Part shown: piece by piece, positions 2,775 through 23,836 of the stretch
Numbering within the stretch: position 1 is the stretch's first letter
How the letters are laid out: each line of letters opens with the position of its first letter
Assembly (NCBI GenBank): GCA_046538485.1
Contig: JBKHIT010000067.1
Location: 1 to 24,270 of the forward strand
Reading direction: 5' to 3'
Source: Candidatus Brocadiia bacterium
GTDB taxonomy: Bacteria; Planctomycetota; Brocadiia; SM23-32
Length of the DNA stretch: 24,270 nucleotides
The notes under the pieces: model-generated
Database searches by the model: none
Told to the model about the DNA's origin: nothing
The model's input: the letters and a program-made list of their open reading frames with translations, nothing else
Made by a program: the position numbers and the translations under genes

Positions 2775-2833
2775 ATCGGTGTAGCGATATATATAAATGC
2801 GCGGGTTATGTGTTTGGCGAGAGGAAAGGACAG

Positions 2834-3538
2834 ATGTTTTCAGATGATGGCCGAGATGCATTCACTCTGATCGAGTTGCTTGTGGTCATTGCGATTATTG
2901 CCATCCTGGCGGCCATGCTGATGCCGGCCCTGGAAAAAGCTCAAGCGCAAGCCAAGCGTGCCGGGTGCGCAGGCCGCGAAAGACAGATCGGGCTGGCTTT
3001 GCATCTCTACGCCAACAGTTACGATGGTTATGTTCCGCCACGCTGGGTGGATTATATCCACAGCGACACTTACAAATTTATGAGTTACCTCAAAACTTAT
3101 CTCGAAAGCCCATCGGTAGTTATCTGCCCGGGCCGCTCCTACCAGGTGTGGAATAGTCCTTACGACTCTGTACCCGGAGCTTACGAGTGGTACGAGGTGT
3201 CGGCTGCAAAAGCCCCTTCTTACGGGTGGGGATTCGGATACAGCGGATATGTGTATGATATCGGGAAAGGCGGCAATCGTGTGGGCATCCGCACGTGGAA
3301 AACAATGCCCAACATCCCCGCCTCCTACGTGATGGCGAGTTGCCGCAGCGATTGGAAGTATGACAGCGGGTGGCGGGATATGGACAAATACTGCAATATC
3401 AGTTGGCTCCCCCACAAAAACACACATTTCAATCTGCTCCGTGCCAGTGGTTCAGTAATCACGCGAAAACCTGCTTTCGCCAACACGGACAATACCAGTT
3501 CCAAAGAGTTCTTCTGGGGTTGGGCTCACAACCATTAA
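2834..3538 (+). CDS. Prepilin-type N-terminal cleavage/methylation domain protein (DUF1559-like, PVC type)
   Basis: [37 protein letters not shown]...[16 protein letters not shown], central ICPG, and a degenerate C-terminal H-X9-DG-type motif ([16 protein letters not shown]). ATG at 2834 follows GAGGAAAGGA. Confidence 0.9.
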
Positions 3539-3584: not shown

Positions 3585-4739
3585 ATGGACGTAACCCAAA
3601 ACGAAACCGGCACCACTTTCGCGGAACTCGGTCCCTCCTCGCGGGTGGCCGAAGCCTACAAGAAACTCCTCCGCTACATCCACGTGCACAAACTGACGCC
3701 GGGCGACCATCTCCCCCCGCAGGAAGAGCTGCGCAATGAACTCGGTTACAGCCATCACACCCTCAGCAAAGCCATGGGAATGTTGACCGACGCCGGCGTG
3801 GTAAGCCGCAAGCCAAAGGTCGGCACCATCGTCCAGAATCCCGAAGCCGTCCTGAAAGGCGTCTGGACGGTCGGGCTGATAACTCAACCTCAGGAAGTCC
3901 TGGAGGTGCCCTTTTTTGCGTTTCTTTCAAATCTCCTCCAGAGCCAGCTCATCCGGATGGGATGTCGCGTTCACATGTACCCGAACATCGATGGCAGCGG
4001 CTCGGACCGCCTTGAACATTTCCCGGGGCTGCCCGAAGAGGTGGCCGCGGAACGTCTGGACGGCGTGATGGCCACAGTGCAACTTCAGCGGAATGCTACC
4101 CGCAGCATCACCGATAACGATATTGTCCTCGTCCACGTGGGCCCCGGCGAAAAATCGGAGAATGCGGTCTGCATCGATCAGCGTGCCATGGTGAAAAAGG
4201 CAGCTGACCTCTTTATCAGCGGCGGCTGCCGGCAGCTGGCGGTCGTGAGCAATTTCGGAGAAGGATCGGGCGAGATCGGGTTCTGGCGCGGATTCCAGGA
4301 AGCGCTTGACGAGTCCCCCGAACACCAAAGCGACGGAGAATCGCTCCATGAAGGCAACGGACCGGAATCGGGCACGGAAGTGGCCCGCAAAATCCTCGAA
4401 CGTCCTGCCTCCGAAAGACCCGACGGCCTGATTGTCGTCGACGACCGGATCGCGATGGGGCTGACCGTTGAGCTGAGCAAAACCGAAGACTATCGTCCCC
4501 GAATCGCCGTGCAGGCCAACCGCGAAGTCCCGCTCGCCTTCCCCATTCCGGTCACCCGTTTCTACGTAAACATCGAGGAAATGGCGCGACTGGGAGCGCA
4601 GAAAATGGTCCGACAACTCCGCGATCCCTCCGAACCGGACGGAGTGACCTGGCTGGAACCTCAAATATTAACCGGAGAGAACGACGATTCCCAACGAAAC
4701 GGTTTTTCCATAAAGACAAAAAGCTGGGATTCGCCCTGA
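3585..4739 (+). CDS. GntR-family winged-HTH regulator with LacI/periplasmic-binding-type effector domain (AraR-like hybrid)
   Basis: N-terminal LTPGDHLPPQEELRNELGYSHHTLSKAMGMLTDAGVVSRKPKVGTIV is a GntR wHTH. The C-terminal part (PFFAFL, DGVM, VCIDQ, GCRQLAVV, RPDGLIVVDDRIAMG) matches LacI-type sugar-binding domains. The last 14 aa may be read-through (see findings). Confidence 0.88.
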   Translation: MDVTQNETGTTFAELGPSSRVAEAYKKLLRYIHVHKLTPGDHLPPQEELRNELGYSHHTLSKAMGMLTDAGVVSRKPKVGTIVQNPEAVLKGVWTVGLITQPQEVLEVPFFAFLSNLLQSQLIRMGCRVHMYPNIDGSGSDRLEHFPGLPEEVAAERLDGVMATVQLQRNATRSITDNDIVLVHVGPGEKSENAVCIDQRAMVKKAADLFISGGCRQLAVVSNFGEGSGEIGFWRGFQEALDESPEHQSDGESLHEGNGPESGTEVARKILERPASERPDGLIVVDDRIAMGLTVELSKTEDYRPRIAVQANREVPLAFPIPVTRFYVNIEEMARLGAQKMVRQLRDPSEPDGVTWLEPQILTGENDDSQRNGFSIKTKSWDSP

Positions 4740-5173: not shown

Positions 5174-7831
5174 GTGAACATTTCTCGCAAGAAATCGATC
5201 GTCTGGTTGCTTTGTGTCGTTTTTCTGATGGCAGGCTCCGCTGCCGACGTCATTGCCGCCGAACGGAAGTCGGCAATGCAGGCCGATCAACGCTACGTCT
5301 TCGCACATTATATGACCTGCTATTTCGGCTCCACACAGTTCTACAAACAGGAAATCGAACTCGCGCAACGGCACGGGATCGATGGTTTCGCGATGAACTG
5401 CGGGGCATGGCTGAACGACATGAAATATGTCAAAGCGACGGAACGAATGTATCAGGCCGCCAGGGAACTCGACACCGATTTCAAACTCTTCATCTCCGCC
5501 GATTGGTCCGCCCAAACCGCAAAAAACGTCAAGGACATGATCAAACGCTTCTACGAGCACCCGAATCAGATGCGCCACAACGCCGCCCCCGTGCTCAGCA
5601 CCTACGGCGGGAGTGCAGGACGGTACAAGAAGATAATCGCAGACCTGAATAAAGACGGTTTCAAAGTCTGCTTTGTGCCCAACCTGTCCCAACAACGTTT
5701 CTCGGCCAACCGCAGCCTCGAATCGAGCCTCCGCCTGATCAAACCGGAACACGTCAGCGGTATGTTCTGGTTTGCTGCCGACGCCACCGTGGCCGAAGCT
5801 CTTCGCACAAACGCCAGCCTCCGACGCGCCACGCTCCTTGCCGATAAAATCTACATGGCCGGGGTCGCCCCATCCTATAACAGCCCCAACCTCCGACAAC
5901 ACCTCGGCATCGAAGGTTATGGGGACGTCTGGGAAGGAATCATCCGCGACGGCGCCGATTGGGTCGAAATCGTCACCTGGAACGACTACAACGAAGATTC
6001 CAATCTCATGCCCTGGCGCTGGCAAAGAGGCTGGGAAAAACAATACATCGACCACGACGAAACCTACCTCGACGCGACCGAATATTACGCAAAATGGCAC
6101 AAAAGCGGCCGCCAGCCCCAAATCACGCAGGACAAGGTCTACTACGCCTACCGCAACCGTTCCCTCTGGCTGCGTCGGGCCTGGGACTGGAAGAACGAGA
6201 AGTGGGTCGATCTGACGATGACCGATTGGCCGTTCGATCAGATTCACGACGACGCAACGGACGAATTGTTTGTCACCTCATTTCTGACCGATCCCGCGAC
6301 CCTCACAGTGGAGATCGCCGGTAAAAAACACACCTGCGAAATGCCGGCCGGCGCAGGACATGCCCGCGTTCCCCTCAAAGCGGGTCTGCCCCGGTTCTCG
6401 TTGTCCCGAAACGGCAAACAACTGCTGGATTTCGCGGGCCGGAAACGCATCATCAACCGGGAGACCCAGACGAAACTCAACAGTCCCAAGGGCTATCACC
6501 TCCTGAACCGCACATGGACCGGCGCAGGCGCCGTGGGCAAGGTCGTGCGACGACTCCAGGTGGAAAAAGGCAAACTGTCTGAAGGTGCCAAAACCGTAAA
6601 AGTCAACGGCAACAAAGGCGTCCAAAATGAAGAAAACCATGGAAGCGGTTTTCGCATCCCGGTCAAAGGGCTCGAGACCTGCACCTACAACGTCCGGGTA
6701 CGATACTCAAATCCCGGCGATGCGGAGGCCCGCCTGACGCTCATGGCGGGCGGACCGCCGCGGCAAGAGAACGCGTATCCGTACTTCATCCCACTGTTTA
6801 TGCCCCGGACCGAAGACGGCGAATTCAAAACCATCAGTTTCTTCTGGTCCCTCTACGAAAATACCACCTGGATGGGCGTGGAATGGATGGAAAACGACGC
6901 ACATGGCCGGCATCGGGGCAATCCCCTCCAGAACGACATGGGCCGACCCATCATCGACTCCATCGAACTGGTGAAGGTCGAACCGACCGAAATGCCCGAA
7001 CCACAGGACTCGATCTTCCCAAAGATGGTCCGCATCCCGGGCGGAAGTTTCCAGATGGGCGACGCCGGGGGACGTCCCGATGAGAAACCGGAACATAAGG
7101 TAACGGTCTCCCCCTTCGCCATGAGCAAATACGAAATTACCAACGAACTCTACGAAAAATACAACCCCAAACACGCCCGCCACCGGGACGGCTATTCCTG
7201 GCGCGACCGCGAGCCGGTTATCTACGTCTCGTGGGTCGACGGAGCAAAATACTGCAACTGGCTCAGCAAACAGGCAAGCCTGCCCCCCGCCTACCGTCAG
7301 GAAGGCGAGAAGAAACAGTGGGTGGTCGATATGAACGCCGACGGTTTCCGCATGCCGACCGAAGCCGAATGGGAATACGTGGCCAGCGGTCGGGGAGAGG
7401 AGCGACAATATCCGTGGGGTCCCGAAGCTCCTCGCCCCGGCCACCACGGCCGCTTCGTCGGTGAAGACGCCCTCGACACCGATGTCAGGCTTCCGGCCCA
7501 GTACGAAGCCGGCACGATGGTGGTGGGATCCTACCCCGCCGGAGCGAGCCGCGACGGCGTGATGGACCTGACCGGTAATGTCTGTGAGTGGTGCAGCAAC
7601 TGGCTCCAGCCGTACACAAAAGACTCCGCGAAAGATCCCTGCGGCGACAAACCCGGCAACTACCGTGCCATACGCGGCAGTTCCTGGGGTTACTACGGCT
7701 ACCCGGCCGAGGTCCATGACCGGGAATACAACAACCCCAAATACCCGGGATACGTCTATATCGGCCTGCGGGTCGTGCTGCCGCAAAAAGGCTGGAACAA
7801 GATGAAAAAAACGTTGAAAGATCGTCGCTGA
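5174..7831 (+). CDS. Secreted GH71-like glycoside hydrolase + CBM6/35-like beta-sandwich + FGE-sulfatase (SUMF1/CLec-fold) domain (paralogue 1)
   Basis: AAGGAG SD before GTG; Sec-like signal peptide; GH71 motifs VFAHYM, EIELAQRHGIDGFAMN, FKLFISAD, YMAGVAP, DWVEIVTWNDYNE; CBM-like TYNVRVRYSN..ARLTL; FGE motifs MVRIPGGSFQMG, EKPEHKV, KYEITN, PVIYVSW, FRMPTEAEWEY, DLTGNVCEW, RGSSW, IGLRVV. Confidence 0.85.
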   Translation: MNISRKKSIVWLLCVVFLMAGSAADVIAAERKSAMQADQRYVFAHYMTCYFGSTQFYKQEIELAQRHGIDGFAMNCGAWLNDMKYVKATERMYQAARELDTDFKLFISADWSAQTAKNVKDMIKRFYEHPNQMRHNAAPVLSTYGGSAGRYKKIIADLNKDGFKVCFVPNLSQQRFSANRSLESSLRLIKPEHVSGMFWFAADATVAEALRTNASLRRATLLADKIYMAGVAPSYNSPNLRQHLGIEGYGDVWEGIIRDGADWVEIVTWNDYNEDSNLMPWRWQRGWEKQYIDHDETYLDATEYYAKWHKSGRQPQITQDKVYYAYRNRSLWLRRAWDWKNEKWVDLTMTDWPFDQIHDDATDELFVTSFLTDPATLTVEIAGKKHTCEMPAGAGHARVPLKAGLPRFSLSRNGKQLLDFAGRKRIINRETQTKLNSPKGYHLLNRTWTGAGAVGKVVRRLQVEKGKLSEGAKTVKVNGNKGVQNEENHGSGFRIPVKGLETCTYNVRVRYSNPGDAEARLTLMAGGPPRQENAYPYFIPLFMPRTEDGEFKTISFFWSLYENTTWMGVEWMENDAHGRHRGNPLQNDMGRPIIDSIELVKVEPTEMPEPQDSIFPKMVRIPGGSFQMGDAGGRPDEKPEHKVTVSPFAMSKYEITNELYEKYNPKHARHRDGYSWRDREPVIYVSWVDGAKYCNWLSKQASLPPAYRQEGEKKQWVVDMNADGFRMPTEAEWEYVASGRGEERQYPWGPEAPRPGHHGRFVGEDALDTDVRLPAQYEAGTMVVGSYPAGASRDGVMDLTGNVCEWCSNWLQPYTKDSAKDPCGDKPGNYRAIRGSSWGYYGYPAEVHDREYNNPKYPGYVYIGLRVVLPQKGWNKMKKTLKDRR

Positions 7832-7865
7832 GAAGGAACGGCTATATCGCAAGGTGCAGGAAAAC

Positions 7866-10628
7866 ATGAAATACAAAAGTATCCCATCAGCAATCGTCTA
7901 CACAGTACTGCTGGTGCTGGTCATCGGCATCGCGCCAGCACAGAAAACCCCAACTGCACGGAAACCGGCTGACGACTCCGTCCCGGTCTGCAGCACCCTC
8001 AGGTCCGCGCGGGAATTCCTTAAAAAGGCCCGGACGTCTCCCGAAATATACGCCGCGGATCTGTCCCGCGCCCAGAAAGGCCAGATACTCCGGGCGCAAA
8101 GTGAGAAACCGCTGCCGCCGGGACGTTACCGGCTCCATGCCCTGGTGGCGAGCCACCCCCACGGGACCATCATTGTCGACGCCGTCGAATTGCGCTTGCA
8201 GGCGAACGGCGCCCGGGCAAGTTTCAATCGCAAGCGCCATTTCCCGAAGCCCGGCAAGCTCGGACACGTGGCCGTGGATTTTCAACTCGAAAAAGAACAA
8301 AAAGCCAGGATCAAAGCCGACTGGTTTGTGGGCGATACTATGCTCGAAGTCGGCGGGAAAAAGAAATGGGAAGCGCGACGCATCTATCGGGCCCGCCGGG
8401 AAAACGCAATTATCAAACGACGACAAAAAGGCCAGTCCATCGACGCCATGGTTGGACATGGCGGCGATGATGGTCTCACCGAAGACCTTTCCATCGAAGA
8501 TGAGCCCCAAAAGCTCCGAAAACGCTCCGTAGAGGATTCCAAACTGCCCGAGTATAGACTCATGCTGGGCGGTCTGGTCATCGAGCGACTTAACCCCGTG
8601 CAGCTCATCGGCGTCACAACGCAACCCCAGATCCTTCAGCCACAGCAGACAGCGCAGCCAGTTGTAACCCTTCGCAATCTCTCGACCGACCCCGCCACCA
8701 CTACCTTGAGCGTGGGTTTCCGCGATGCGGAAGATGACGAACCGACGGGCGAGTTGCTTTCAACCGAGGTCACGCTAAAACCAGAGGAAAAGCGGAAATG
8801 GAAAGTGGACAAGACGCTGAACCTGGGAGGCGTGCGCCAGTTTTGCGAACTCACGGCCACGCTCGAAAAAAGCGAACTCCGCCCCCAGACAAAAACCTCT
8901 CTTCTCGCGATTCTGCCCTCAAAGCAAGATCCGCCTGACCTGCCAAAGAAGGCTTTCGCCCATTACATGGGGTGCTGGCCGGTGGCGACGGGCCCGATTC
9001 TGTGGCAGCTCAAAAACATCCACAATAATTTCAGCCATCAGAACTCCGGCGAGAAGGGCCGCTACGGCGGGCACGTGCGGAATTTCCCACTCGTCCCGCC
9101 GGATATGTCACTCAGCCTCGAGGAAAGCGTCGACCTGGAAATACGGCGGGCGTTGCGTATGGGACTGGACGGTTTCGCGATCGATGCCTGGGCCGGAAGC
9201 AACGACGCCAAAAATACCCTTAATGCGATGTTCAAGGTCGCGGAAGAAAAAGATTATCCCTTTGAAATCACCATCTGCCTCGACCCGGCCTGCGGAGGGT
9301 GGTCAAGCGCCGTCAAATATCTCATGGAACGTCACGGCGACAGCCCTAAACTCGCGCGACGGGACGGGAGACCTCTCATTTTTGGTTACCTCACGGGTTT
9401 CCATGTCCGCGGCCGGCTGCGAGGGAAATATCCAGACTTAAGCGACAAACAACGCCTCTCCCTTCTCGCCAAACCTGAGGGCTGGAAAGCACTCCGTGAG
9501 TTGCTGCAGGAATTCGACAGAGCGGCCGGCGAACGGTGTTACTACCACATCGGAATGCAGTATTTCTTTCATCAGGTTCCCGCTCACCTGCGCAGTCGGG
9601 AACGCACCCTCAGCGCCGTGCGGGCCTTCGCATCTTTCCCGGAAGTCGGCGCGATTGGGGCATTCTCACACACAGGTTACGGCTCCTTCGGGTCCCTGCT
9701 GCCCAAAATGGCCAGAGCCGTCAGGGAATCCGGAGCCGAATGGGAATGTCCGATTGGAATGTATCAGAAAGAAAACATCCCCTACGAAATGTTCGGTCCA
9801 AAAGGCACGGAATGGATCGATAGGTGCTGGAATGACGCCAGGAAACAAAACTCCACACTGCTCCAGCTGGTCACCTGGAACGACTACGGTGAGAACACCA
9901 TGATGGCACCGGCCTGGAACACACGATACACGTTCTACGATCTGACGCGATACTACCTGCAGTGGTGGAAAACGGGCGCGAAACCCCGGCTCGATCGCGA
10001 TCGCATGTATCTATCGTGGCAGAAATACCCCGAAGGTTCGAAAGTCTGGCCGTTCGACGTGAAATTCCATCGCAAAGGCGCCATTGAAGTGCTGACCTTT
10101 CTGAAAAAACCGGCTCTGGTCCGTCTTCCGGGCCGCGACGTGGAATATGAAGCTCCTGCCGGCAAACTCCGCCGCCAGTTCCCCCTCACCCCGGGTCCAA
10201 TCGTCGCAGAAATTGTGCGTGACGGAAAAGTCGTGCGCCGGCTGGAAAGTCCGGAACCGGTCACTGATCGTCCGTTCCGGGGAGATAACGGTCTGACATG
10301 TATCTCAACGGAATTCGAACGCCACTGGCGCGCCGATTTCGGGGATACCCCGATCTGGCATTACAGCGAATACGGCGATGCCGACGACGACGGGTTGCCG
10401 AACTGGTTCGAGATGTACTGGTTCGGCAAATGGCTTGATTTTTCCACCATGACCGACGCCGAACCGGACGCAGATCCGGACGAAGACGGCAAGACCAACC
10501 GGGAAGAATACCTGGCGCGAACCGACCCGACTCTGGGACATGTCTCGGCAGATCCAGCCGAACTTGAAAAGGAAATTGACAAAGAGAAGGACCAGGATTT
10601 CGACCTGCTTGATGAGCTGGAGGAATGA
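7866..10628 (+). CDS. Secreted GH71-like glycoside hydrolase with extra N-terminal beta/Ig-like domains, C-terminal Ca-binding TSP3-like module and acidic tail (paralogue 2)
   Basis: Likely ATG at 7866 (MKYKSIPSAIVYTVLLVLVIGIAPA signal peptide); the track start is GTG at 7854. Motifs KAFAHYMG, EIRRALRMGLDGFAIDAW, QLVTWNDYGE; C-terminus YGDADDDGLPNWFE...ADPDEDGKTNREEYLARTDP...DFDLLDELEE. Confidence 0.82.
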   Translation: MKYKSIPSAIVYTVLLVLVIGIAPAQKTPTARKPADDSVPVCSTLRSAREFLKKARTSPEIYAADLSRAQKGQILRAQSEKPLPPGRYRLHALVASHPHGTIIVDAVELRLQANGARASFNRKRHFPKPGKLGHVAVDFQLEKEQKARIKADWFVGDTMLEVGGKKKWEARRIYRARRENAIIKRRQKGQSIDAMVGHGGDDGLTEDLSIEDEPQKLRKRSVEDSKLPEYRLMLGGLVIERLNPVQLIGVTTQPQILQPQQTAQPVVTLRNLSTDPATTTLSVGFRDAEDDEPTGELLSTEVTLKPEEKRKWKVDKTLNLGGVRQFCELTATLEKSELRPQTKTSLLAILPSKQDPPDLPKKAFAHYMGCWPVATGPILWQLKNIHNNFSHQNSGEKGRYGGHVRNFPLVPPDMSLSLEESVDLEIRRALRMGLDGFAIDAWAGSNDAKNTLNAMFKVAEEKDYPFEITICLDPACGGWSSAVKYLMERHGDSPKLARRDGRPLIFGYLTGFHVRGRLRGKYPDLSDKQRLSLLAKPEGWKALRELLQEFDRAAGERCYYHIGMQYFFHQVPAHLRSRERTLSAVRAFASFPEVGAIGAFSHTGYGSFGSLLPKMARAVRESGAEWECPIGMYQKENIPYEMFGPKGTEWIDRCWNDARKQNSTLLQLVTWNDYGENTMMAPAWNTRYTFYDLTRYYLQWWKTGAKPRLDRDRMYLSWQKYPEGSKVWPFDVKFHRKGAIEVLTFLKKPALVRLPGRDVEYEAPAGKLRRQFPLTPGPIVAEIVRDGKVVRRLESPEPVTDRPFRGDNGLTCISTEFERHWRADFGDTPIWHYSEYGDADDDGLPNWFEMYWFGKWLDFSTMTDAEPDADPDEDGKTNREEYLARTDPTLGHVSADPAELEKEIDKEKDQDFDLLDELEE

Positions 10629-10662
10629 ATTGCCGGCAAAAGGCGAACTTGAGGAACAATTC

Positions 10663-10729
10663 AAAACGGTGTTCCGTCCGCCGGAAGGCGGACTGCTCAC
10701 CGCACTCCAGAGATGGCGCTCGCGCCATC
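10663..10729 (+). repeat. REP-like palindrome, family A, plus adjacent hairpin
   Basis: AAAACGGTGTTCCGTCCGCCGGAAGGCGGACTGCTCACCGCACTCCAG followed by the hairpin GATGGCGC-TC-GCGCCATC; homologous to the reverse complement of 12743-12800. Confidence 0.75.
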
Positions 10730-10809
10730 AGGACTCAGAACGCCGGACGCCAGTTGTAGCATTTTGTAGTTTCTTTCGATAAACGAATGCACACAAGAAT
10801 ATCAGGATA

Positions 10810-12663
10810 ATGGTTAAACGATTTCTCTACCGCTACCTATCGCCAGCTATCGTCCTCCTCGCGGTATTTTCCCTTTTCGGCACCGCCCCATTGCTCGGCG
10901 GGGAGAGAAAAACCAGGCGCAAAATCTACGCTCATTATTACGGGGCGTTTCCGTTCGCGCGGCGTGCGATGGCTCTGTACGTCCGGCACAACTACCATAG
11001 CATGTCGCCCGGCGATGAGAACAAAGATGGCAATCCGCTGCGCGCCATGCCCCTTCACAACCGCCGGCTGGTGGCGCACTGGGAACTTTCGCCCGACGAA
11101 AGCGCGGACATCGCCATTCGCCGCGCGCTCCGAGCAGGCCTCGACGGGTTCGCGGTCAACGCATGGTGCGGCGGTGGGGAAGGCCGACGAATGCTCCACG
11201 TGCTGATGAGAGTTGCAAAAAATAAAGACTACCCGTTTGAACTCACCGCTGCCCTCGATCCGTATGAAGTTTACGACATTTTCACCAATCCCAGTGCAAA
11301 TCCCAGCAATCCGCCCGGCCGGACCGTCGAAAAGGTCCTCCACGCAGCCGAATATGTGGTCACCAAATTCGGTGAACATCCGAAACTCGCCCGGCGGAAC
11401 GGCAAACCGCTCCTTTTTATCCACAACGGCAGGCTCCTCGCCCACTGTTACCGCGAAAGTCATGACAACACCAGCAGCACCATCTCCGCGTTGAAGCTGG
11501 CCTGCGAAGCAATCCAGAAACGCGTCGGACAACCCATCTACCTCGTGGTCGACGTTGCCGGAGTCTACCCGAGACAGAGCAAAGGGGTGCTCAGTCCGAA
11601 AGTGACCTCCCGACTCGCCCGTGAGGCCGCGAAAAAAATGAAGGCCGTGACGATTTTCCAGCCCAATGACGAACCCGATTGGGTTGCCCCTGGGAAAGCG
11701 GTTGAGAAAACCGGGGCCGAGTGGTGCTACCCACTCTGCTATCAATATGAAAACCTCGATTACCGGATCCGAGCCCACGCATTCAGTGTCGGCGGTGATC
11801 GGTTCCGCGAACAGTGGAGGAAAATCCGAGAAAGTGACACATCCCTGATCCTGCTCCACAGCTGGAACGATTACCGTGTGCTGAGCCACATTTCGCCTAC
11901 GTTCTCCCACAACTACGTGCCGCTCGATCTGACGGGCTATTTTGCCCGATGGTGGAAAGAAGGCGATCTCCCGGAGACAAAAGACGACAGGATCTACTGT
12001 CTCTACCGCCGCTACCCTCCCGGGACGCGCATCGCTCCGTTCAATAAATACTATCCCGAGCCCGAGCACGGGGCTCTTGAAGTGCTGACGATTCTGAAAG
12101 AGTCCGGCCGAGTGGTCTTGAAAGACCGTGGAGAGAACGGAGAGGATCTCGCCTGGGACGCACCCGCCGGGCTTTCGTTCCGGCAGTTCCCCCTGGAACC
12201 CGGCCCGGTGGAAGTGGAGTTACTCCGTAACGGCAAGAAAGAAAAGTCCCTGAGCTGCCCCGAACGGATAACCGACAGACCTTTCCGCCAGGACAACGCC
12301 CTTGTGGCGTATTCAACCGAATACATGAAACATTGGCAGGCGGATTGGGAGACGCCGCCACTGGATCGCAAAAATCAGAAACCCATTTTCTATTCCGAGT
12401 ATGGCGACGCCGACAGCGACGGACTGCCGAATTGGTTCGAGATGTATTACTTCGGAAAATGGAATGATGCGAAATCGAAAAAGCGCGCCGATCCAGAAGC
12501 CGATCCCGACAAAGATGGCAAAACGAATCGAGAAGAGTACCTGGCGCGCACCGATCCGAAGAAAAAAGGAAAAGGCATCCACGATCCTTCAAAGATGGGC
12601 AAAGATCTTGACGCCAACCCACCGGACGACAGCGGGATGCTCGACAATCTGATGGAGGAATAG
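10810..12663 (+). CDS. Secreted GH71-like protein with TSP3-like module and acidic tail; conserved Glu replaced (paralogue 3)
   Basis: Signal peptide; KIYAHYYG, AIRRALRAGLDGFAVNAW, HSWNDYRV (WNDYxE in the other four); C-terminus YGDADSDGLPNWFE...ADPDKDGKTNREEYLARTDP...GMLDNLMEE. Confidence 0.8.
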   Translation: MVKRFLYRYLSPAIVLLAVFSLFGTAPLLGGERKTRRKIYAHYYGAFPFARRAMALYVRHNYHSMSPGDENKDGNPLRAMPLHNRRLVAHWELSPDESADIAIRRALRAGLDGFAVNAWCGGGEGRRMLHVLMRVAKNKDYPFELTAALDPYEVYDIFTNPSANPSNPPGRTVEKVLHAAEYVVTKFGEHPKLARRNGKPLLFIHNGRLLAHCYRESHDNTSSTISALKLACEAIQKRVGQPIYLVVDVAGVYPRQSKGVLSPKVTSRLAREAAKKMKAVTIFQPNDEPDWVAPGKAVEKTGAEWCYPLCYQYENLDYRIRAHAFSVGGDRFREQWRKIRESDTSLILLHSWNDYRVLSHISPTFSHNYVPLDLTGYFARWWKEGDLPETKDDRIYCLYRRYPPGTRIAPFNKYYPEPEHGALEVLTILKESGRVVLKDRGENGEDLAWDAPAGLSFRQFPLEPGPVEVELLRNGKKEKSLSCPERITDRPFRQDNALVAYSTEYMKHWQADWETPPLDRKNQKPIFYSEYGDADSDGLPNWFEMYYFGKWNDAKSKKRADPEADPDKDGKTNREEYLARTDPKKKGKGIHDPSKMGKDLDANPPDDSGMLDNLMEE

Positions 12664-12742
12664 TCGTCGCTGCTACACAACTATAGAATATAGAATCATG
12701 AAGAGAGCGTTTGACCACTGTGAACTGCAAAAACCCCTCCAC

Positions 12743-13100
12743 GGAGCGCTTTCGGATTGCGGTGAGTAGGCCGCCATCCGGCGGGCCCAGCACCGCTTTC
12801 GCTTTCGTTCATAGCGATATAATGTCCGGCGAAACAATTATGGGAACGTTTTTTTCTTGATCTTAAGCTTGTTTGATTATCGTGGCATCTGAGATTTTCA
12901 TACCAATTGAAAGCGGCGCTGGCGCGCGCGCACTCCAAAGCCAGCGCGGAGCGCTGGCAGGGCAACACAAATATGCCGATGCCCGAGGAGCCGAAATGCA
13001 AAGCTCAGTTTCAGCAATCGTGAAATCCAAAACACTCCTGCGCGGAGCGCTTTCGGAGTGCGGTGAGGAGTTCCGCATCGCGGAACGGAGCACCGCTTTC
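12743..13100. repeat. Cluster of three family-A REP-like units in alternating orientation (12743-12800 -, 12904-12958 +, 13043-13100 -)
   Basis: Both minus copies read GGAGCGCTTTCGGA(T/G)TGCGGTGAG-[variable hairpin]-AGCACCGCTTTC on the + strand; the plus copy is CAATTGAAAGCGGCGCTGGCGCGCGCGCACTCCAAAG. Confidence 0.78.
12826..12894 (+). repeat. AT-rich 69-bp direct repeat, copy 1
   Basis: CCGGCGAAACAATTATGGGAACGTTTTTTTCTTGATCTTAAGCTTGTTTGATTATCGTGGCATCTGAGA; 65 of 69 positions identical to 18314-18381 (3 substitutions, 1 T-run indel). Confidence 0.9.
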
Positions 13101-13250
13101 ACTTTGCCGACAGTTGCCGTCAATCGTAAGTATTTTTCTCTCGAGGCACCAATAGCTTTTCCTAACATTACACTGATGCATTTCGCCCGACAAAACCACG
13201 AGATTGCGGATCGAAACGGCGCGCCTCACTCAAAAGCCCGATAGACCATC

Positions 13251-15038
13251 ATGAAACACAAAAATCAACTGCTGGCATTTACAATAACGCTGCTGATTCT
13301 GTTCGTTTCTCCGGAGACGCAGATTTCCAGATGTGCCGCGGGAGAAAAAAGAGAACGCAAGTTTTTCGCCCACTACATGGGCTGTTTCCCCGTCGGGCGC
13401 GGGGCGAGCCAGTACCACCGCCGCGAAGCGAAACGCTTCGGCGGCGAACTCCGCCAATACAACCTCGTCCCCTTCGATGCGAACCTCTCCCGACTGGAAA
13501 GCGCCGACCTCGAACTGCGTCGCGCGGCTCGCATCGGGCTCGACGGATTCGCCATCGACACGTGGGCGGGCGGGATTGAGGCCAAGAACACCCTCGACGC
13601 CCTTTTCTGGGTGGCCGAGAAAAAAGATTATCCCGTCGAAATTACCATTTGTATTGACGCCAGCTGTCTGTCCATGTCGCCCAAACCCGGCACCGTGGAC
13701 GCCGTGCGGTATCTGCTGGACGTGCACGGGGACAGTCTGAAGCTGGCCCGCCGCGACGGAAAGGTGCTGGTTTTTGGATACCAGTCGATCTGGCCGGGGG
13801 TGCAGCATCTGTGGGACGTGCTGGGGCCGAAAATCGGCTGGGATAAACGGGGCAAGATCGCGGCAGCCGTCGGCCGAATGCGGCGCACTCCGGAAGGCTG
13901 GCGGCATATCGCCGGTGGGTACCGGTGGATTGAAAAGCAGGTCGGACAACCCATCTACTGGCATTTCGGCATGGGCGCATTCTTCCACGGTGTGAGCCGG
14001 AAGAAAAATCAGTCCCTCTCGACCAGGAAAGCCGCGGGGGTTATCGCCGAAAAGCTGGACGCCGTCGGACAGTTCACCTGGGGAGGAAATGTCAAAGGTA
14101 TGGCCGAAGCGGTGCTGGCCGAAGGCAAAGAGTTCTCCGTGCCCATGCTACTCCAATACGAAAACAAAATGATGGGCCGTTCCTACGGCGGACCGGGCAC
14201 CAAAGCCATCCGGGGAAAATGGTCATTCGCCCGGAATCTCCCCAGCACGCTCATCCAATACACCACCTGGAACGATTACAACGAGAACACAATCCTCGCA
14301 CCCGGGCTGAAACTCCGCTACGCCTACTTCGATTTCACCGGGGAGATGATCCGATGGTGGAAAACCGGAGAACCTCCCACCAGCGATCACGACAAGATCT
14401 ACATATTCTCCCGCGATTACCCCCACAAAGCGCGCGTCTACCCCGGCAGCAGTATGGGCTGTGCGAAGGGGGCCCTGGAAATTATGACAATACTTCCCCA
14501 ACCCGCGACCGTCCGCCTGAAAGGCAGAGGCGAGGACGGCGAAGACGTCACGTGGGAAGCCCCGTCGGGGATGCACGCCCGGCAGTTTCCCGTCACGCCC
14601 GGACCGGTCATCGTCGAATTGCTCCGCGACGGAAAAGTCGCCAAACGGCTCGAACACCCCGATCCCATCACCGACAAACCCTGCACATTCAACGGCGGGA
14701 TCAATGCCTACTCCACGGAGTTCTACCGCCACTGGAAAGCCGATTTCGGAGATACCGACCCGGAACCGATCCTGCAAAGTCTGTATGGCGACGAGGACGA
14801 CGACGGGCTGCCAAACTGGTTCGAAATGCGCTGGTTCGGCACCGTTGGCGACTGGTCAACGATCACAAAAGCCCGCCCCAAAGCCGACCCGGACCGGGAC
14901 GGGAAAACGAACATCGAGGAATACCGTCAACAGTCGGACCCCACCGTCGGCCCCGTCAGTACGAACCCGGACGATTTCGAAAAAGGTTCCGACGAAGGCG
15001 ACGAAACGATGAATCTTCTCGATGAACTGGCAGAATGA
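13251..15038 (+). CDS. Secreted GH71-like glycoside hydrolase with TSP3-like module and acidic tail (paralogue 4)
   Basis: Signal peptide; KFFAHYMG, ELRRAARIGLDGFAIDTW, QYTTWNDYNE; C-terminus YGDEDDDGLPNWFE...ADPDRDGKTNIEEYRQQSDP...MNLLDELAE. Confidence 0.83.
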   Translation: MKHKNQLLAFTITLLILFVSPETQISRCAAGEKRERKFFAHYMGCFPVGRGASQYHRREAKRFGGELRQYNLVPFDANLSRLESADLELRRAARIGLDGFAIDTWAGGIEAKNTLDALFWVAEKKDYPVEITICIDASCLSMSPKPGTVDAVRYLLDVHGDSLKLARRDGKVLVFGYQSIWPGVQHLWDVLGPKIGWDKRGKIAAAVGRMRRTPEGWRHIAGGYRWIEKQVGQPIYWHFGMGAFFHGVSRKKNQSLSTRKAAGVIAEKLDAVGQFTWGGNVKGMAEAVLAEGKEFSVPMLLQYENKMMGRSYGGPGTKAIRGKWSFARNLPSTLIQYTTWNDYNENTILAPGLKLRYAYFDFTGEMIRWWKTGEPPTSDHDKIYIFSRDYPHKARVYPGSSMGCAKGALEIMTILPQPATVRLKGRGEDGEDVTWEAPSGMHARQFPVTPGPVIVELLRDGKVAKRLEHPDPITDKPCTFNGGINAYSTEFYRHWKADFGDTDPEPILQSLYGDEDDDGLPNWFEMRWFGTVGDWSTITKARPKADPDRDGKTNIEEYRQQSDPTVGPVSTNPDDFEKGSDEGDETMNLLDELAE

Positions 15039-15300: not shown

Positions 15301-17958
15301 ATGCAAAACCGAAATCATAGAGTTCTGTCCATTGTCGCTGTTCTGCTGGTTTTCTCAGCCCTCGCGACGACGCCAGCCCGATCTGCTGAACCCAAAAATG
15401 CGGAAACTAAACCCCGCCACATGGTTTTCGCACATTACATGACGTGTTTTGCGCTCTCCGTCCCCTTCCACAAGCAGGAGATCCGCATCGCGCAGTCGCA
15501 CGGGCTGGACGGTTTTGCCATGGATTTTGGAGCCTGGATTTCTTACGACAAAAAGGAAGACAAAATCAAACCGACTCGTTACGTGGAAAATATCGATCGG
15601 ATGTTCCAGGCGGCCAAAGAACTCGGTACCGATTTCAAACTTCTTCTCACGCCGGAATACAGCGTGAATCCCATGGAGAAAGCAATACCTCACATGGTGA
15701 AACGCTACTACGACCATCCCAATACCATGCGCTATCAGGGCAAGATGGCGCTGTCTTCCTACGGTGTGTCTCCTCAGCGTATCGGCGGGCTGCTCGACCA
15801 GCTTCAAAAAGAAGGATACGAAATCGCCTTCATACCGTTTTTCGGCGTCGGCCGACATGAGATGTCGGAAAGCGTGGAACACACACTCACCATGCTTCGC
15901 AAGCCGCATGTCACAGGGGTCTGGCGTTTTGTGACCGACGACTCTCCCCGGGGATGCATCCGCACGAACGCTAATATGAGACGGGCCGCCCTCTTCGCCG
16001 ACAAACTCTACATGGCCGGCGTCTCTCCCTATTACAACAGCGCCAACGTCCGCGACATGCAGGGCATACACGGCTACGGGGCCGTCTGGAAAGGTATTAT
16101 CCGTGATGACGCCGATTGGGTCGAAATCGTAACGTGGAATGACTACAACGAAGACACCAATCTAATGCATTACAAGTGGAAACGTAACTGGCACAAACAG
16201 CTCTACAATCGGGACGGTTCCCTGCTCGACGCCACGGCCTACTACATCAGCTGGTATAAACGGGGGAAAGCACCGGAAATCCAGCAGGACAAACTGTTTT
16301 TCGCCTATCGCGACCGGTCAAAATGGCTCGTCAAAGCATGGCACGCAAAAAAGAAAGAGTGGAAAACTCATACGATGGGCAAATGGCCGTTCACCCAGAT
16401 CCACGACGATGTGCTGGATCGGGTATATTTCTCGACTTTCCTCACAAAACCGGCACGGTTGAGCGTCAGTATCGCCGGAACCGAAAAAACGTTCGAAATG
16501 CCGGCCGGCGTGAAACACCGCTCGATCCCCATGAAACCCGGTGTGCCGCATTTTGTCCTCCAGAGGCAGGGCAAAGAGCTCTTCGACGTCGTCGGGCGCC
16601 GCACAATCATCGAGAAAGAAACCAAAGAGAACAGCCGCTATTTCGGCAGCCACCGGCCGAGTCGCATCTGGGCAGGAGAAGCGGTGGCGGGGAAAGCAAT
16701 CTCAATCGAAGCTGAATCCGGGGAACTCGATAACGGAGCTGAGGCTCAAGAGAAGGCGGTTCATCTGCCAGCAAAACCAGATGCCGGCGTTTCCCTGGGC
16801 GTAAAAGGTTTAAGAACGGGGATGTACAACCTCCGCTTCCGTTATTCAAATCCCCACTCCTATGACCGTCGTCTCACGCTCTACGCTGACGGCGTGAAAC
16901 GAGTCGATCCGAATGAAAAATACCGGATCCCGCTCTGGCTTCCGCCGACGGGGAAAGGCAAATGGAAGACCGCAACACTGATGTGGACGCTCTACGAAGA
17001 CACCACATTCCTGCGAATCGAGTGCGATCGCAAACCGGAGGGCGAAAAGATTCGCACGCCGGGCTGGAACGATACCGCCGATGTGCTGATTGACCGGGTC
17101 GATCTCGTCCGTGTCCGGCCGCATTCGTTCGAACCCGTCAAACAGTCGATCTTCCCCGAACTGGTAAAAATCCCGGGCGGCACGTTCCAGATGGGAAACG
17201 ACACAAGCAGCGAAAAGGACGAAAAACCGGCCCATGAAGTCACCGTCTCCGATTTCTACATCGGGAAATATGAAGTGACCAACGAACAGTTTGAAAAATT
17301 CTGGCCGGAACACGGAAAATGGCGCGACGGCTATTCGTGGCGCAATGACGAACCCGTCATTTACGTCGGCTGGAAAGACGGCGCCCGGTATTGCAACTGG
17401 TTGAGCAAACAAGCCGGCCTGACGGAGGTTTACGATGAAAAAACCTGGAAAGCCGACATGAAAGCCGACGGATTCCGGCTTCCCACCGAGGCCGAATGGG
17501 AATACGTCGCCTCGGGGCGCGGCCAGAATCGAAAGTATCCCTGGGGCAATGAGGATCCGGAACCGATGGTCCACGGCAATTTTCAGCTTGAGAAATCGCT
17601 CGGAGTGCCTTCTATCATGAGAGCCCAGCATGCCCAGGGGGTTGTCACCGTCGGTAACTTCCGAAAAGGTGCAAGCCGTGACGGAGTGATGGATCTGGCC
17701 GGCAACGTCACCGAGTGGTGCACCGACTGGTATCAGATGTACTCCGGAGAGTCCGCCAAGAATCCCGTCGAGACGCAAGAAAGTCATAGCCGGGTATTGC
17801 GTGGCGGATCGTGGGGGTATTACGGCTACAGCCAGCGGTGCGACGACCGCGAATTCAACAGTCCCAATTACCCCGGCTACATATTCATCGGTTTCCGAAT
17901 CGCTCTGCCTGCATCCGGCTACGAAAAAATTAAGGGGAAACTTGTGTCCGACCGGTGA
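15301..17958 (+). CDS. Secreted GH71-like glycoside hydrolase + CBM6/35-like domain + FGE-sulfatase (CLec-fold) domain (paralogue 5)
   Basis: Signal peptide; MVFAHYMTC, EIRIAQSHGLDGFAMD, DWVEIVTWNDYNE; SIEAESG...GMYNLRFRYSN..RRLTLYADG; LVKIPGGTFQMG, FRLPTEAEWEY, DLAGNVTEW, RGGSW, IGFRIA. Colinear with 5174..7831. Confidence 0.85.
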   Translation: MQNRNHRVLSIVAVLLVFSALATTPARSAEPKNAETKPRHMVFAHYMTCFALSVPFHKQEIRIAQSHGLDGFAMDFGAWISYDKKEDKIKPTRYVENIDRMFQAAKELGTDFKLLLTPEYSVNPMEKAIPHMVKRYYDHPNTMRYQGKMALSSYGVSPQRIGGLLDQLQKEGYEIAFIPFFGVGRHEMSESVEHTLTMLRKPHVTGVWRFVTDDSPRGCIRTNANMRRAALFADKLYMAGVSPYYNSANVRDMQGIHGYGAVWKGIIRDDADWVEIVTWNDYNEDTNLMHYKWKRNWHKQLYNRDGSLLDATAYYISWYKRGKAPEIQQDKLFFAYRDRSKWLVKAWHAKKKEWKTHTMGKWPFTQIHDDVLDRVYFSTFLTKPARLSVSIAGTEKTFEMPAGVKHRSIPMKPGVPHFVLQRQGKELFDVVGRRTIIEKETKENSRYFGSHRPSRIWAGEAVAGKAISIEAESGELDNGAEAQEKAVHLPAKPDAGVSLGVKGLRTGMYNLRFRYSNPHSYDRRLTLYADGVKRVDPNEKYRIPLWLPPTGKGKWKTATLMWTLYEDTTFLRIECDRKPEGEKIRTPGWNDTADVLIDRVDLVRVRPHSFEPVKQSIFPELVKIPGGTFQMGNDTSSEKDEKPAHEVTVSDFYIGKYEVTNEQFEKFWPEHGKWRDGYSWRNDEPVIYVGWKDGARYCNWLSKQAGLTEVYDEKTWKADMKADGFRLPTEAEWEYVASGRGQNRKYPWGNEDPEPMVHGNFQLEKSLGVPSIMRAQHAQGVVTVGNFRKGASRDGVMDLAGNVTEWCTDWYQMYSGESAKNPVETQESHSRVLRGGSWGYYGYSQRCDDREFNSPNYPGYIFIGFRIALPASGYEKIKGKLVSDR

Positions 17959-18796: not shown

Positions 18797-20191
18797 ATGA
18801 AACTCACCATATCCAAGCAGCCAATTTCCGACCGCCGTTTCCACGGTCTGGGTTTCCAGGCCGATCCGTTCGTGTACGATGAAACGAATTGCCAGGCGGG
18901 CGTTGAAGAAAGCGATTTTAAGCTGATCGAAGAACGAATCCGCGCCATCCGCCCCGCCATCGCCCGGATATTCGTCGCGGTGGAATGGTTCAATCCATCC
19001 CTCGACGGAAAAACCTTCGACTGGGAAACCGCTGAACTCAAAAATCTTCTGCGGCAGCTCCGGCTTCTGGATTCGCTCGGCACCAGGATAAATCTGGTGC
19101 TGTTCCGGCCGTTTCCGGGCGAACACGAAGAAACCCTGAAACTGGTTGAAGCCATGCTGGTCCTGATACGGCACCTCCACGAAAGAGGGCTCAAAACAAT
19201 CCGCTGGCTCACGCTCTACAACGAACCCGACACTTTTTATCCGCAGGATACCTCCCTCGCCCGGAAAGTGCTGCAGGAACGTTTTGAATCGACCGAACTG
19301 AGATGGGACGATTACGTTCAACTGAACCGCCACGCGGCGCAGATGCTCCGGGAACAGAAACTCGACGGCCCGTTAAAACTCATCGTTGCCGATACCGTCT
19401 GGGGACACCCTTTTCGTCTGGAACGCATGAACCTTGCCGCTGAAGCATTCAGTGATCTGGACGTCGTCTACGGTTACCATAATTACAGCCCCGAAGATTC
19501 GACTCTCCACGGCGACAAAGAGGAATGGGCTTACCCGGGGATCGTGCGTGAAGCCGAACTTCTTCGGGAGATTGTCGGCCAGAACTCACCTTTGATGCTC
19601 TGGGAATTCAACAACTCCGGTCCCGGTTTTGGAAGCCATTTTCCGGGCCTTGGGCCGGGCGGATCGGACCTTCTCGGCTCACTGCGGAGCGCCGTCCAGA
19701 CCAGCGACATCATCCTATCGGCCGCCGGAGCGGGTATCGATGGGCTGTGTCTCTGGTGCTCGCACGACATGATTTACCTCGGCAACAAGAAGGGCAATCC
19801 AATGCGGTTCGGGTTATGGCGTTACAAATGGGAGGACTGGCAGCCCCGCCCCTGTTACCATTATTTTGCCCTGCTGTGCCGCGCATTTCGACCTGGAACG
19901 CAGTTTGTTCAGTGCGATCGGGACAGTGACGATGTGCAAGTTCTTGCGGGCCAGCGGGACGAGGAGGCGGTGATTGGGCTTTTGAACAGAAAACGGGAGC
20001 CCGTGGAGGTCGCCATCGACAGCGCTCTGCCGGTGCCCCCCACACGCCACCGCATCCACCCCGAACCGCTCCCCCGGGAGAACCACCTCCCGGTATGGAA
20101 GGTGGAAAAGCAGGATTCCGCCACGGATGAGATGCGGCTGGCACCGTTTGAGCTAACAGTTTTAGCGGATGGATTGTCGGATGTCGGCTGA
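18797..20191 (+). CDS. Clan GH-A-like (GH39/GH30/GH5-like) glycoside hydrolase, no signal peptide
   Basis: Putative acid/base motif WLTLYNEPD, YGYHNYS, putative nucleophile LMLWEFN, GLCLW...RFGLWR..WQPRPCYH, and a C-terminal beta-sandwich (IGLLNR...LAPFELTVL). The family cannot be fixed by eye. Confidence 0.7.
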   Translation: MKLTISKQPISDRRFHGLGFQADPFVYDETNCQAGVEESDFKLIEERIRAIRPAIARIFVAVEWFNPSLDGKTFDWETAELKNLLRQLRLLDSLGTRINLVLFRPFPGEHEETLKLVEAMLVLIRHLHERGLKTIRWLTLYNEPDTFYPQDTSLARKVLQERFESTELRWDDYVQLNRHAAQMLREQKLDGPLKLIVADTVWGHPFRLERMNLAAEAFSDLDVVYGYHNYSPEDSTLHGDKEEWAYPGIVREAELLREIVGQNSPLMLWEFNNSGPGFGSHFPGLGPGGSDLLGSLRSAVQTSDIILSAAGAGIDGLCLWCSHDMIYLGNKKGNPMRFGLWRYKWEDWQPRPCYHYFALLCRAFRPGTQFVQCDRDSDDVQVLAGQRDEEAVIGLLNRKREPVEVAIDSALPVPPTRHRIHPEPLPRENHLPVWKVEKQDSATDEMRLAPFELTVLADGLSDVG

Positions 20192-23623: not shown

Positions 23624-23836
23624 AATGTAAAAAGACCTCCATTTGCATTGACGACTGTTTTTCCAGCTGCCGGGACAGGCACCCATTATAGCGCGCCTGT
23701 TTAGCGTGGCAACACCGCAGGACTTCCGGAGACGGGATTCGGGGGTTGGAACCCCAAAGATTGTTTGGACGGAAAGGGCTTTCAAGGACAGAACTGCTGT
23801 CGGGGGCGCTTATCCCGTCCCCTGGCACTGGGACAT

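Follow-up and report, generated by a model that had tools for sequence, protein, structure and literature searches.

What is the shared C-terminus of three neighbouring GH71-like enzymes for? The question is raised by contig JBKHIT010000067.1 of a Candidatus Brocadiia bacterium (Planctomycetota; assembly GCA_046538485.1), which was analysed over its entire length of 24,270 nucleotides, hereafter the window, and which carries five co-directional genes encoding GH71-like proteins (P1 to P5). Three of these proteins, P2, P3 and P4, end with a putative calcium-binding module followed by an extension, acidic in character, that closes on a short leucine-rich motif. An earlier examination of the letters alone, hereafter the sequence-only reading, had proposed that this region might be a secretion, anchoring or complex-assembly signal and that the basic ends of P1 and P5 might be its partners. 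Our overall reading, to which we give about an even chance, is that the three enzymes combine a fixed, TSP3-related calcium module with a family-restricted docking tail, rather than carrying a secretion or sorting signal.

The C-terminal module and its distribution

P2 (924 amino acids (aa), positions 7854..10628), P3 (617 aa, 10810..12663) and P4 (595 aa, 13251..15038) are encoded by open reading frames (ORFs) on the + strand. Their translations and a three-way C-terminal alignment bear out that all three carry both the module and the terminal motif, as the sequence-only reading had described. The module covers 51 residues near the C-terminus and contains two canonical 12-residue DxDxDG....E loops. 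Its order is D-x-D-x-D-G-L-P-N-W-F-E, a helix (M-x-[WY]-F-G), a spacer, D-P-D-x-D-G-K-T-N-x-E-E, a second helix and [ST]-D-P, and the alignment is invariant at YGD[AE]D[DS]DGLPNWFEM.[WY]FG ... ADPD.DGKTN.EEY...[ST]DP. In P2, it extends from D842 to P892 (10377..10529, +), with loop 1 reading DADDDGLPNWFE and loop 2 DPDEDGKTNREE, and a short helix comes after each loop; the start initially assigned to the whole region, 10371, lies two codons upstream of the first loop (D842 = 10377). The module of P3 (residues 533-583; 12406..12558, +), placed by the C-terminal alignment, shows just two deviations, both conservative (W to Y547 and T to S556). That of P4 (D514-P564; 14790..14942, +) has the loops DEDDDGLPNWFE and DPDRDGKTNIEE, and was modelled by AlphaFold2 with a predicted local distance difference test score (pLDDT) of 89-98 and helices at 522-529 and 554-560.

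EF-hand loops follow a 12-residue consensus, D-x-[DNS]-x-[DNS]-G-x-x-x-x-x-E, and are followed by a helix. Both loops of the module meet this pattern and have a predicted helix after each. The loops are strongly conserved: 16 sequences are invariant, in P2 numbering, at D842, D844, D846, G847, L848, P849, N850, W851, F852, E853, M854, D874, P875, G879, K880, T881, N882 and P892. Among 122 sequences, D514, G519, P521 and P564 of P4 are invariant, G551 and D563 are likewise invariant or nearly so, and D516, D518, L520, N522, W523, F524, E525 and M526 are conserved in at least 90%. Module residues are thus some of the few invariant or near-invariant columns of the whole GH71-like family.

A hidden Markov model (HMM) of the module recognized 119 of the 120 best full-length homologues, the lone exception being a truncated record, and residues 500-595 of P4 used as a query returned 13 proteins, every one of them a GH71 protein. 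What follows the module varies: 80 of the 119 proteins end within 20 residues of it, in 20 it is followed by 21-79 residues, and in 19 by another domain, about 150-370 residues long. Given its near-universal presence among the homologues (119 of 120) and the many family-invariant residues that it contains, the module is not a detachable tag: it is an integral, fixed structural part of this GH71-like subfamily and not something appended to it.

The relationships of the module were sought by several routes. The three C-terminal pieces matched no Pfam family at E ≤ 10, EF-hand included, and solved EF-hand proteins gave only sub-threshold sequence matches (CDPK3, E = 0.061; lanmodulin, E = 0.18). 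A scan of the whole genome with PF18884 (TSP3_bac) had as its sole match an unrelated protein of contig C115, the modules of the paralogues falling below the model. The module profile, run against 1.84 billion proteins, found 1971 at E ≤ 1e-3, many of them with 5-19 matched stretches; the four top matches that were scanned all belong to Pfam TSP3_bac (E 1e-25 to 2e-92), and the ESM Atlas structure neighbours of P4 residues 505-595 carry TSP3_bac. In a wide structure search with the C-terminal model, the matches were taken up by residues 4-84, the beta-sandwich (best Z 6.2), and so do not bear on the module or the tail. At the level of motifs, these matches and the two canonical loops support the TSP3-type calcium-binding assignment made by the sequence-only reading. 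Judged by its sequence, the module is a divergent pair of the bacterial TSP3/EF-hand type, present as one fixed copy on this GH71 branch, and it probably binds two Ca2+ ions. In loop 2 of P4 (14883-14918), as in that of P2 and P3, a proline occupies loop position 2; the lanmodulin loops matched below threshold (E = 0.18 and 0.33) likewise read DPDKDG.

TSP3 modules on secreted glucanases have been published before: Lam16A of Saccharophagus degradans has the architecture GH16/CBM6/CBM6/TSP3x4 (PMC2386152). The TSP3 repeats of this type (PF18884) and the GH71 module share acidic DxDxDG loops, a D-P/TDP spacer and a location on secreted polysaccharide enzymes. In contrast to strings of variable TSP3 repeats, the GH71 module occurs as a single fixed pair whose aromatic residues (LPNWFEMxWFG) are invariant; it is tied to one catalytic family and falls short of the Pfam PF18884 model.

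Another possible relative is the dockerin. Type I dockerins are pairs of Ca2+-binding loop-helix "F-hands" found on cellulosomal enzymes. The module resembles them in having two 12-residue calcium loops with helices, about 20 residues apart, on a secreted glycoside hydrolase and at or close to its C-terminal end. It differs from them at loop position 12, which is Glu instead of the Asp of dockerins, in being modelled confidently within the whole protein, and in being internal in 19 of the 119 homologues. Dockerin_1 gave no HMM match, and cohesin PF00963 had 0 matches in the genome to which the window belongs, although this genome is 88.3% complete, so that absence is not proof. The cohesin/dockerin reading was rejected on these two negative results.

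Related units occur elsewhere in the lineage. An 872-aa protein (locus L003, 442-3060, - strand) from genome G005 of the same family has two domains joined by the same kind of two-loop unit (DEDRDGMPDQWE ... DQDDDGYTNLEEYLNQTDP), the N-terminal half of the protein resembling, by reading of the sequence, a pectate lyase. From its inter-domain position, this unit therefore serves as a connector in other secreted enzymes of the lineage too. In the window genome, contigs C12 (frame at 0, 303 aa) and C91 (frames at 0 and 2387) encode small proteins that end with a DxDGDG loop, then a helix like DMQDLIDELKREGYK or DLEDLKQVLEEQGYRSP; these ends are EF-hand-like C-terminal units with an exiting helix of the LIDEL type.

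Anatomy and conservation of the acidic tail

Beyond the module, P2 has an acidic extension of 32 aa (10530..10625, +) that ends in FDLLDELEE (10599-10625), its terminal sequence being ...DQDFDLLDELEE. The extension of P3 has 34 aa (12559..12660, +) and ends in GMLDNLMEE (12634-12660; ...DDSGMLDNLMEE), and the acidic extension of P4 has 31 aa (14943..15035, +) and ends in MNLLDELAE (15009-15035; ...DETMNLLDELAE). Four alignment columns of the end (L91, D92, L94 and E96) are invariant across the three proteins, and the linker before them is divergent. The sequence-only reading had contrasted a poorly conserved linker with a conserved end; this stands for the end and for most of the linker, which nevertheless holds a second, weak motif, [ND]P-x-[DE]-Φ-[EG]-K (ADPAELEK, TNPDDFEK and HDPSKMGK).

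The codons of the tails differ synonymously between the paralogues (CTG/ATG/CTT, CTT/CTC/CTC and GAT/GAC/GAT), the proteins are mutually only 37-46% identical overall and their nearest relatives are different. These differences argue that the common tail of P2, P3 and P4 is kept by selection and does not result from recent gene conversion. The net charge of the last 35 residues ranges from -2 to -11.5 in the three paralogues (P2, -11.5; P4, -10.2). The whole mature proteins have a charge of about -1 to +7 for P2, P3 and P4, +10.6 for P1 and +17.3 for P5.

In the AlphaFold2 model of P4, the two helices of the tail (residues 573-579, DDFEKG, and 589-594, LLDELA) coincide with the two motifs. Their pLDDT in the full-length model is 75 for residues 570-579 and 53-54 for 580-595; in a construct without the catalytic domain, the values along the tail are 83, 62 and 74, the last being that of the terminal helix. 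The tail is rich in proline and glycine and is predicted to be largely disordered; the family tails contain 13.6% D, 11.1% E and 10.4% P.

The pattern [LMIVF][LMIVF][DE][DEGN] was sought within the last 10 residues of the 23 family tails of 21-79 residues. It is present in 11 of these tails, whereas composition-preserving shuffles, 2000 per tail, averaged 0.69 and never exceeded 5; since the tails are related by descent, this comparison is descriptive and does not give a probability. Similar endings are found in P0001 (LDLLDELAE), P0223 (FDLLDELEE), P0211 (VLELLDK), P0167 (VEQLLEDI), P0184 (TLELLED), P0165 (LDALLEGLE), P0043 (NELLEGK), P0204 (NEMLDGK) and P0192 (DDLIDGK), and looser acidic and hydrophobic ends in P0046, P0163 and P0231. 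P2 and its nearest relative P0223, which are 71% identical, end in the same eight residues, DLLDELEE. On an unrooted tree, the tail trait requires at least 5 changes according to the starred branches, and 8 in the best tree, and it appears in at least 5 separate places; it fills two well-supported clades of five members, around P4 and P2. This distribution is compatible with an ancient origin followed by frequent loss.

A homologue search with the tail alone (P4 residues 556-595, E ≤ 10) gave 11 candidates, none of which scored, the word-based method being too insensitive for an acidic peptide of 40 residues. A literature search found no paper joining LLDEL, C-terminal and secreted. Two other explanations of the local sequence were rejected. 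The first was that the long forms carry the same motif at an alternative site, as an acidic, LD-like stretch inside their N-terminal extension; a strongly acidic window was present there in only 2 of the 23 proteins of at least 850 aa. The DNA of the tail does not serve as the ribosome-binding site of the next gene, the next start lying 182 nt past the P2 stop.

Distribution of the tail outside the family

The sequence-only reading had suggested scanning proteomes for enrichment of the motif among proteins with a signal peptide. In the window genome, the strict tail motif was found in 4 of 42,398 six-frame ORFs, namely the three paralogues and one spurious frame of 112 aa, and the module patterns were found in the three paralogues and one unrelated TSP3-repeat protein. 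A looser scan for acidic tails retained 10 of 5151 frames of at least 200 aa, among which P2 and P4 are the only GH71-like proteins. The only other one of these ten that draws attention is a non-GH71 frame (contig C8, 11868-14495, - strand; 875 aa), membrane-anchored at its N-terminus, with an acidic region and a body seemingly of the beta-propeller type; it ends in ...PASGWEEKKPTPVEDIDPGLLED (DIDPGLLED), so that a "GW..KK" element and an acidic LLED end occur together in it.

At the level of the phylum, 401 genomes (400 besides the window genome) were scanned with a DNA pattern encoding [LF][LF]DE[LF]xE then T-R-R. This gave 34 matches versus about 58 for the reversed-pattern control, which was counted by hand. 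Among the 29 foreign loci that were read, LLDELxE followed by a stop closes three frames, of 318, 492 and 141 aa, none of which carries the module; by reading of their sequences, the 318-aa and 492-aa frames resemble a HEAT-repeat protein and an M20-type peptidase. Three of the 34 places, including an LLDELQE-stop on contig C232 of genome G033, were left unread. The 31 other genomes of the order gave two matches: FLDELNE-stop, closing a protein that resembles glycine-cleavage H by reading of its translation, and FLDELIEW, without a stop. The tail was thus found on no other secreted protein in the window genome, in the 31 genomes of the order or in the 400 of the phylum. Foreign matches were only on apparently cytoplasmic or unidentified proteins, lacked the module and were no commoner than the control. 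Because the motif is confined to one enzyme family and is at or below control elsewhere, the sorting reading fails the test that the sequence-only reading had set for it, and within the genomes searched the tail is refuted as a general secretion or sorting signal.

The known C-terminal sorting devices do not fit the tail either. Sortase-type tags (PEP-CTERM, LPXTG and GlyGly-CTERM) consist of a signature motif, a hydrophobic transmembrane helix and a C-terminal basic cluster; this type was rejected, as the last 31-34 residues of the paralogues contain no hydrophobic stretch and are negatively charged. The C-terminal domain of the type IX secretion system is a beta-sandwich of about 80-100 residues located at the C-terminus, and it was also rejected: the stretch beyond the module is just 31-34 residues long and is predicted to be coil with two short helices. 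Type I secretion relies on a C-terminal signal in proteins that have no N-terminal signal peptide and carry upstream RTX GGxGxD repeats; all three paralogues start with a signal-like segment, and no GGxGxD repeat is present in their translations, so that this candidate was discarded as well.

Enzymes that carry the module and the tail

P2, P3 and P4 each begin with a hydrophobic, signal-peptide-like segment and are read here as exported proteins with a GH71 fold. Their GH71 match (Pfam PF03659) is weaker than that of P1 and P5 (P2, E = 9.1e-17 and 61.3 bits; P3, E = 2.9e-12 and 46.5 bits; P4, 49.7 bits), all scores being above the 34-bit cut-off. P2 is a long form composed of an N-terminal extension, the catalytic domain, a beta-sandwich, the calcium module and the acidic tail. 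Its N-terminal extension (about 350 residues; 7854-8900) has no Pfam match and is common to other long forms (P0009-P0013), in which the GRYRLHALV and W.VGD..LD blocks are conserved. P3 and P4 are short forms, P3 being divergent. The AlphaFold2 model of P4 has a mean pLDDT of 91.1 and a predicted template modelling score of 0.89; Foldseek places it closest to two GH71 structures from fungi, 9fnf and 8yfh (E about 1e-20; template modelling score by target 0.74-0.76), GH99 coming next.

The catalytic dyad of the fungal enzyme AnGH71C is D265/E268 (PMC12394665). P1 aligns to D265/E268 of 9fnf, and P4 has a dyad at D342/E345 within WNDYxE, a motif conserved across the family. Through this common WNDY motif, the equivalence can be extended from P1 to the module-bearing paralogues, for which it is inferred. 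The fungal alpha-1,3-glucanases AnGH71C and Agn1 (9fnf, 8yfh) and P4 share a (beta/alpha)8 barrel, a beta-sandwich and the D-x-x-E dyad in WNDYxE. By contrast, sequence identity is only 13-15%, and the fungal proteins (targets about 400 residues long) end after the beta-sandwich, with neither calcium module nor acidic tail.

P2 shows no deviation at the catalytic dyad positions. In P3, Val replaces the general-acid Glu of the dyad (E to V357), and the protein departs from the family at 25 of 117 positions of at least 90% conservation (e.g. E to A102 and D to N117). In a tree of the catalytic columns, P3 lies on a long terminal branch (1.82), P4 is sister to P0001 (82% identity) and P2 to P0223 (71%), both with starred support. 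P3 is probably a catalytically impaired paralogue that retains the module and the tail. As it lacks the general-acid Glu yet keeps both of them, the role of the tail would be independent of catalysis.

The members of the 122-sequence set are 42-58% identical overall, except P3 (37%) and P0001 (79%). The sole relative found in the reference-genome collection is a Kiritimatiellia metagenome-assembled genome, and a partial homologue at 95% identity carries the NCBI label "Planctomycetes bacterium". One metagenome paper reportedly mentions GH71 together with Planctomycetes (PMC7265232); a literature search found none joining Kiritimatiellota with GH71.

GH71-FGE paralogues and their basic ends

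The two remaining paralogues combine GH71 with an FGE-sulfatase domain: P1 (885 aa, 5174..7831, +; PF03659 E = 6.6e-54, PF03781 E = 1e-41) and P5 (885 aa, 15301..17958, +; PF03781 E = 5.5e-49, PF03659 E = 1.9e-43). Translation confirms that both end with basic residues, KMKKTLKDRR in P1 and KIKGKLVSDR in P5. P1 has a basic aromatic extension (LPQKGWNKMKKTLKDRR; 7778-7828, +), with a motif that is conserved in relatives, whereas its FGE match ends at residue 868; P5 has a basic extension as well (...PASGYEKIKGKLVSDR; 17905-17955, +). The motif G[WYF][KNRE][KR]Φ occurs in 9 of 11 GH71-FGE proteins, P1 and P5 included, and is absent from L001 and L055; the variants in the window and at loci L040, L044, L046, L058, L065, L066 and L071 include AGWKKIKK, AGWKKTKK, GYKKLGGK, GWNKMKK and GYEKIKGK.

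A GH71-FGE gene and a module-bearing gene form a recurrent two-enzyme pair, at L001, L040, L055, L058 and L071 (also L044 and L046), as in the window. The basic tails occur with or without an acidic tail on the neighbouring enzyme. Since the basic motif is present beside tail-less neighbours, the acidic and basic tails are not an obligatory matched pair; they do not co-vary. The basic tails are a conserved feature of the family of the FGE paralogues themselves. They could be peptides that the EF-hand pair of the adjoining enzyme recognizes as its target.

A model for the tail and its alternatives

Combined, the data can be assembled in the following model. The calcium module would rigidly cap the beta-sandwich, and it is the junction to whatever comes next, i.e. 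nothing, a tail or another domain. Where a tail follows, it would be a flexible acidic tether ending in a short amphipathic acidic helix (Φ-D-L-L-D-E-L-x-E), with the weaker motif N/D-P-x-D/E-Φ-E-K upstream. The hydrophobic face of this helix (F/M, L, L, L) and the flanking carboxylates would enter a hydrophobic groove lined with basic residues. This groove could belong to the enzyme set itself, whose bodies are basic, so that the tail would bind in cis or to a paralogue; alternatively, it could be on the strongly basic co-encoded GH71-FGE enzymes. The tail is plausibly a docking peptide, a short linear motif restricted to this family. A parallel is provided by the paxillin-type LD motifs (LDxLLxxL), acidic and amphipathic helices of short length that bind to helical bundles (PMC2572193). 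In either case a brief helix, acidic and rich in leucine, lies within a disordered region, and DELDALLEGLE of P0165 fits LDxLLxxL exactly; in the tails of the window, which read ΦDLLDEL, the spacing of the leucines is shifted by one residue. Unlike these tails, LD motifs are eukaryotic and cytosolic, so that the analogy is one of mechanism only, and neither homology nor membership is claimed.

Several observations weigh against docking. The many homologues that end within 20 residues of the module (80 of 119) indicate that the tail is dispensable for the core function of the enzyme. The tail motif is degenerate and the sequences in which it was counted are related. The low pLDDT of the terminal helix in full-length P4 means that AlphaFold2 gives no confident docking in cis. 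As for the FGE enzymes as partners, a GH71-FGE gene adjoins just 5 of the 15 module-bearing genes whose flanks reach 3 kb or more on each side, and of the nine foreign FGE loci, seven have a complete module-bearing neighbour, L040 being the only one of these seven with an acidic tail. A bolder version, in which a cohesin-free docking would depend on Ca2+, is quite unlikely: the F-hand pair would clasp the basic aromatic peptide of the FGE enzymes (A-G-W-K-K-Φ-K) as calmodulin does, the LD-like tail being a built-in competitor or second latch, within a periplasmic or surface multi-enzyme complex of Kiritimatiellia and related bacteria of the Planctomycetes-Verrucomicrobia-Chlamydiae (PVC) group.

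The tail may also have no specific partner and be an acidic bristle that balances charge or solubilizes a basic enzyme, its leucines forming a helix cap or being kept by descent. This is possible, although we consider it improbable: the richness of the tails in D, E, P and G, their low pLDDT, the basic enzyme bodies, the absence of the tail from most homologues and the acidic tails that lack the LL motif (P0229, ...GEGDDEEDER; P0231, ...DIEDEFED) would all be explained, but not the hydrophobic pattern, which keeps its distance from the C-terminus in clades of only 44-60% identity, whereas the linker varies, which exceeds the composition-keeping shuffles (11 of 23 tails versus 0.69), which is retained in the divergent P3 and which comprises eight identical final residues in P2 and P0223 despite catalytic parts only 71% identical. 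An intramolecular regulator, a tail that would mimic an anionic substrate and fold onto the basic substrate surface, keeping the enzyme inactive or protected until polysaccharide or Ca2+ arrives, is doubtful; it is the version of the docking peptide that acts in cis. It would suit the combination of a basic body and an acidic tail, a flexible linker of about 20 residues that could reach back, and a terminal helix whose pLDDT rises to 74 in the C-terminal construct; the value of 53-54 in the full-length model does not, and the retention of the tail by the catalytically impaired P3 would be odd for an autoinhibitor.

That a dedicated machine recognizes the tail and exports or surface-anchors the enzyme is very unlikely, despite the location of the motif at the extreme C-terminus of proteins with signal-peptide-like N-termini and its conserved position relative to the end. 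The motif is restricted to one enzyme family, and the strict scan located it on no other protein encoded in the genome; in the 400 phylum and 31 order genomes it does not exceed the control and sits on apparently cytoplasmic proteins; and 80 of 119 homologues have no tail at all. Moreover, as read from the sequences, the tail has no hydrophobic helix, basic cluster or beta domain, and it therefore fits no known C-terminal sorting architecture. Least probable of all, to the point of being hardly credible, is a third, degenerate Ca2+ site formed by an EF-like loop running into the LLDEL helix. The stretch D-K-E-K-D-Q-D-F-D-L-L-D of P2 is indeed acidic at loop positions 1, 3, 5, 7, 9 and 12 and hydrophobic at 8, but P3, with Pro at position 5 and Ser at 8, does not fit, position 1 is S or E in P4 and P0001, Gly is at position 6 in none of them, and the C-terminal pieces have no EF-hand family match; this candidate was rejected, its fit being limited to P2.

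Genomic context of the array

The host assembly is 5.19 Mb, and a tblastn search of the genome found no GH71-like gene outside the window, so that P1 to P5 are its full set. Immediately upstream of the array is a gene for a regulator combining GntR and a periplasmic-binding domain (3585-4739), preceded by genes for a prepilin-type N-methylation protein that weakly matches DUF1559 (2810-3538) and for a URO-D-like protein of 567 aa (1034-2737, - strand). Downstream lie genes for two proteins of 464 and 413 aa (18797-20191; 22544-23785, - strand) that belong to no Pfam family.

Significance for the GH71-like family

At present, the main value of these results is negative and clarifying: the calcium module is fixed in the family, and the tail is no PVC-wide secretion signal. 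Taken as a whole, the module and tail are a modest variant on a known theme, that of secreted glycoside hydrolases equipped with disordered tails and with calcium-binding modules of the repeat type. If the docking peptide proved true, it would be a bacterial extracytoplasmic short linear motif organizing glycoside hydrolases without cohesin-dockerin pairs, and it would offer a handle for peptide pull-downs of the partners of an uncharacterised bacterial GH71 branch.

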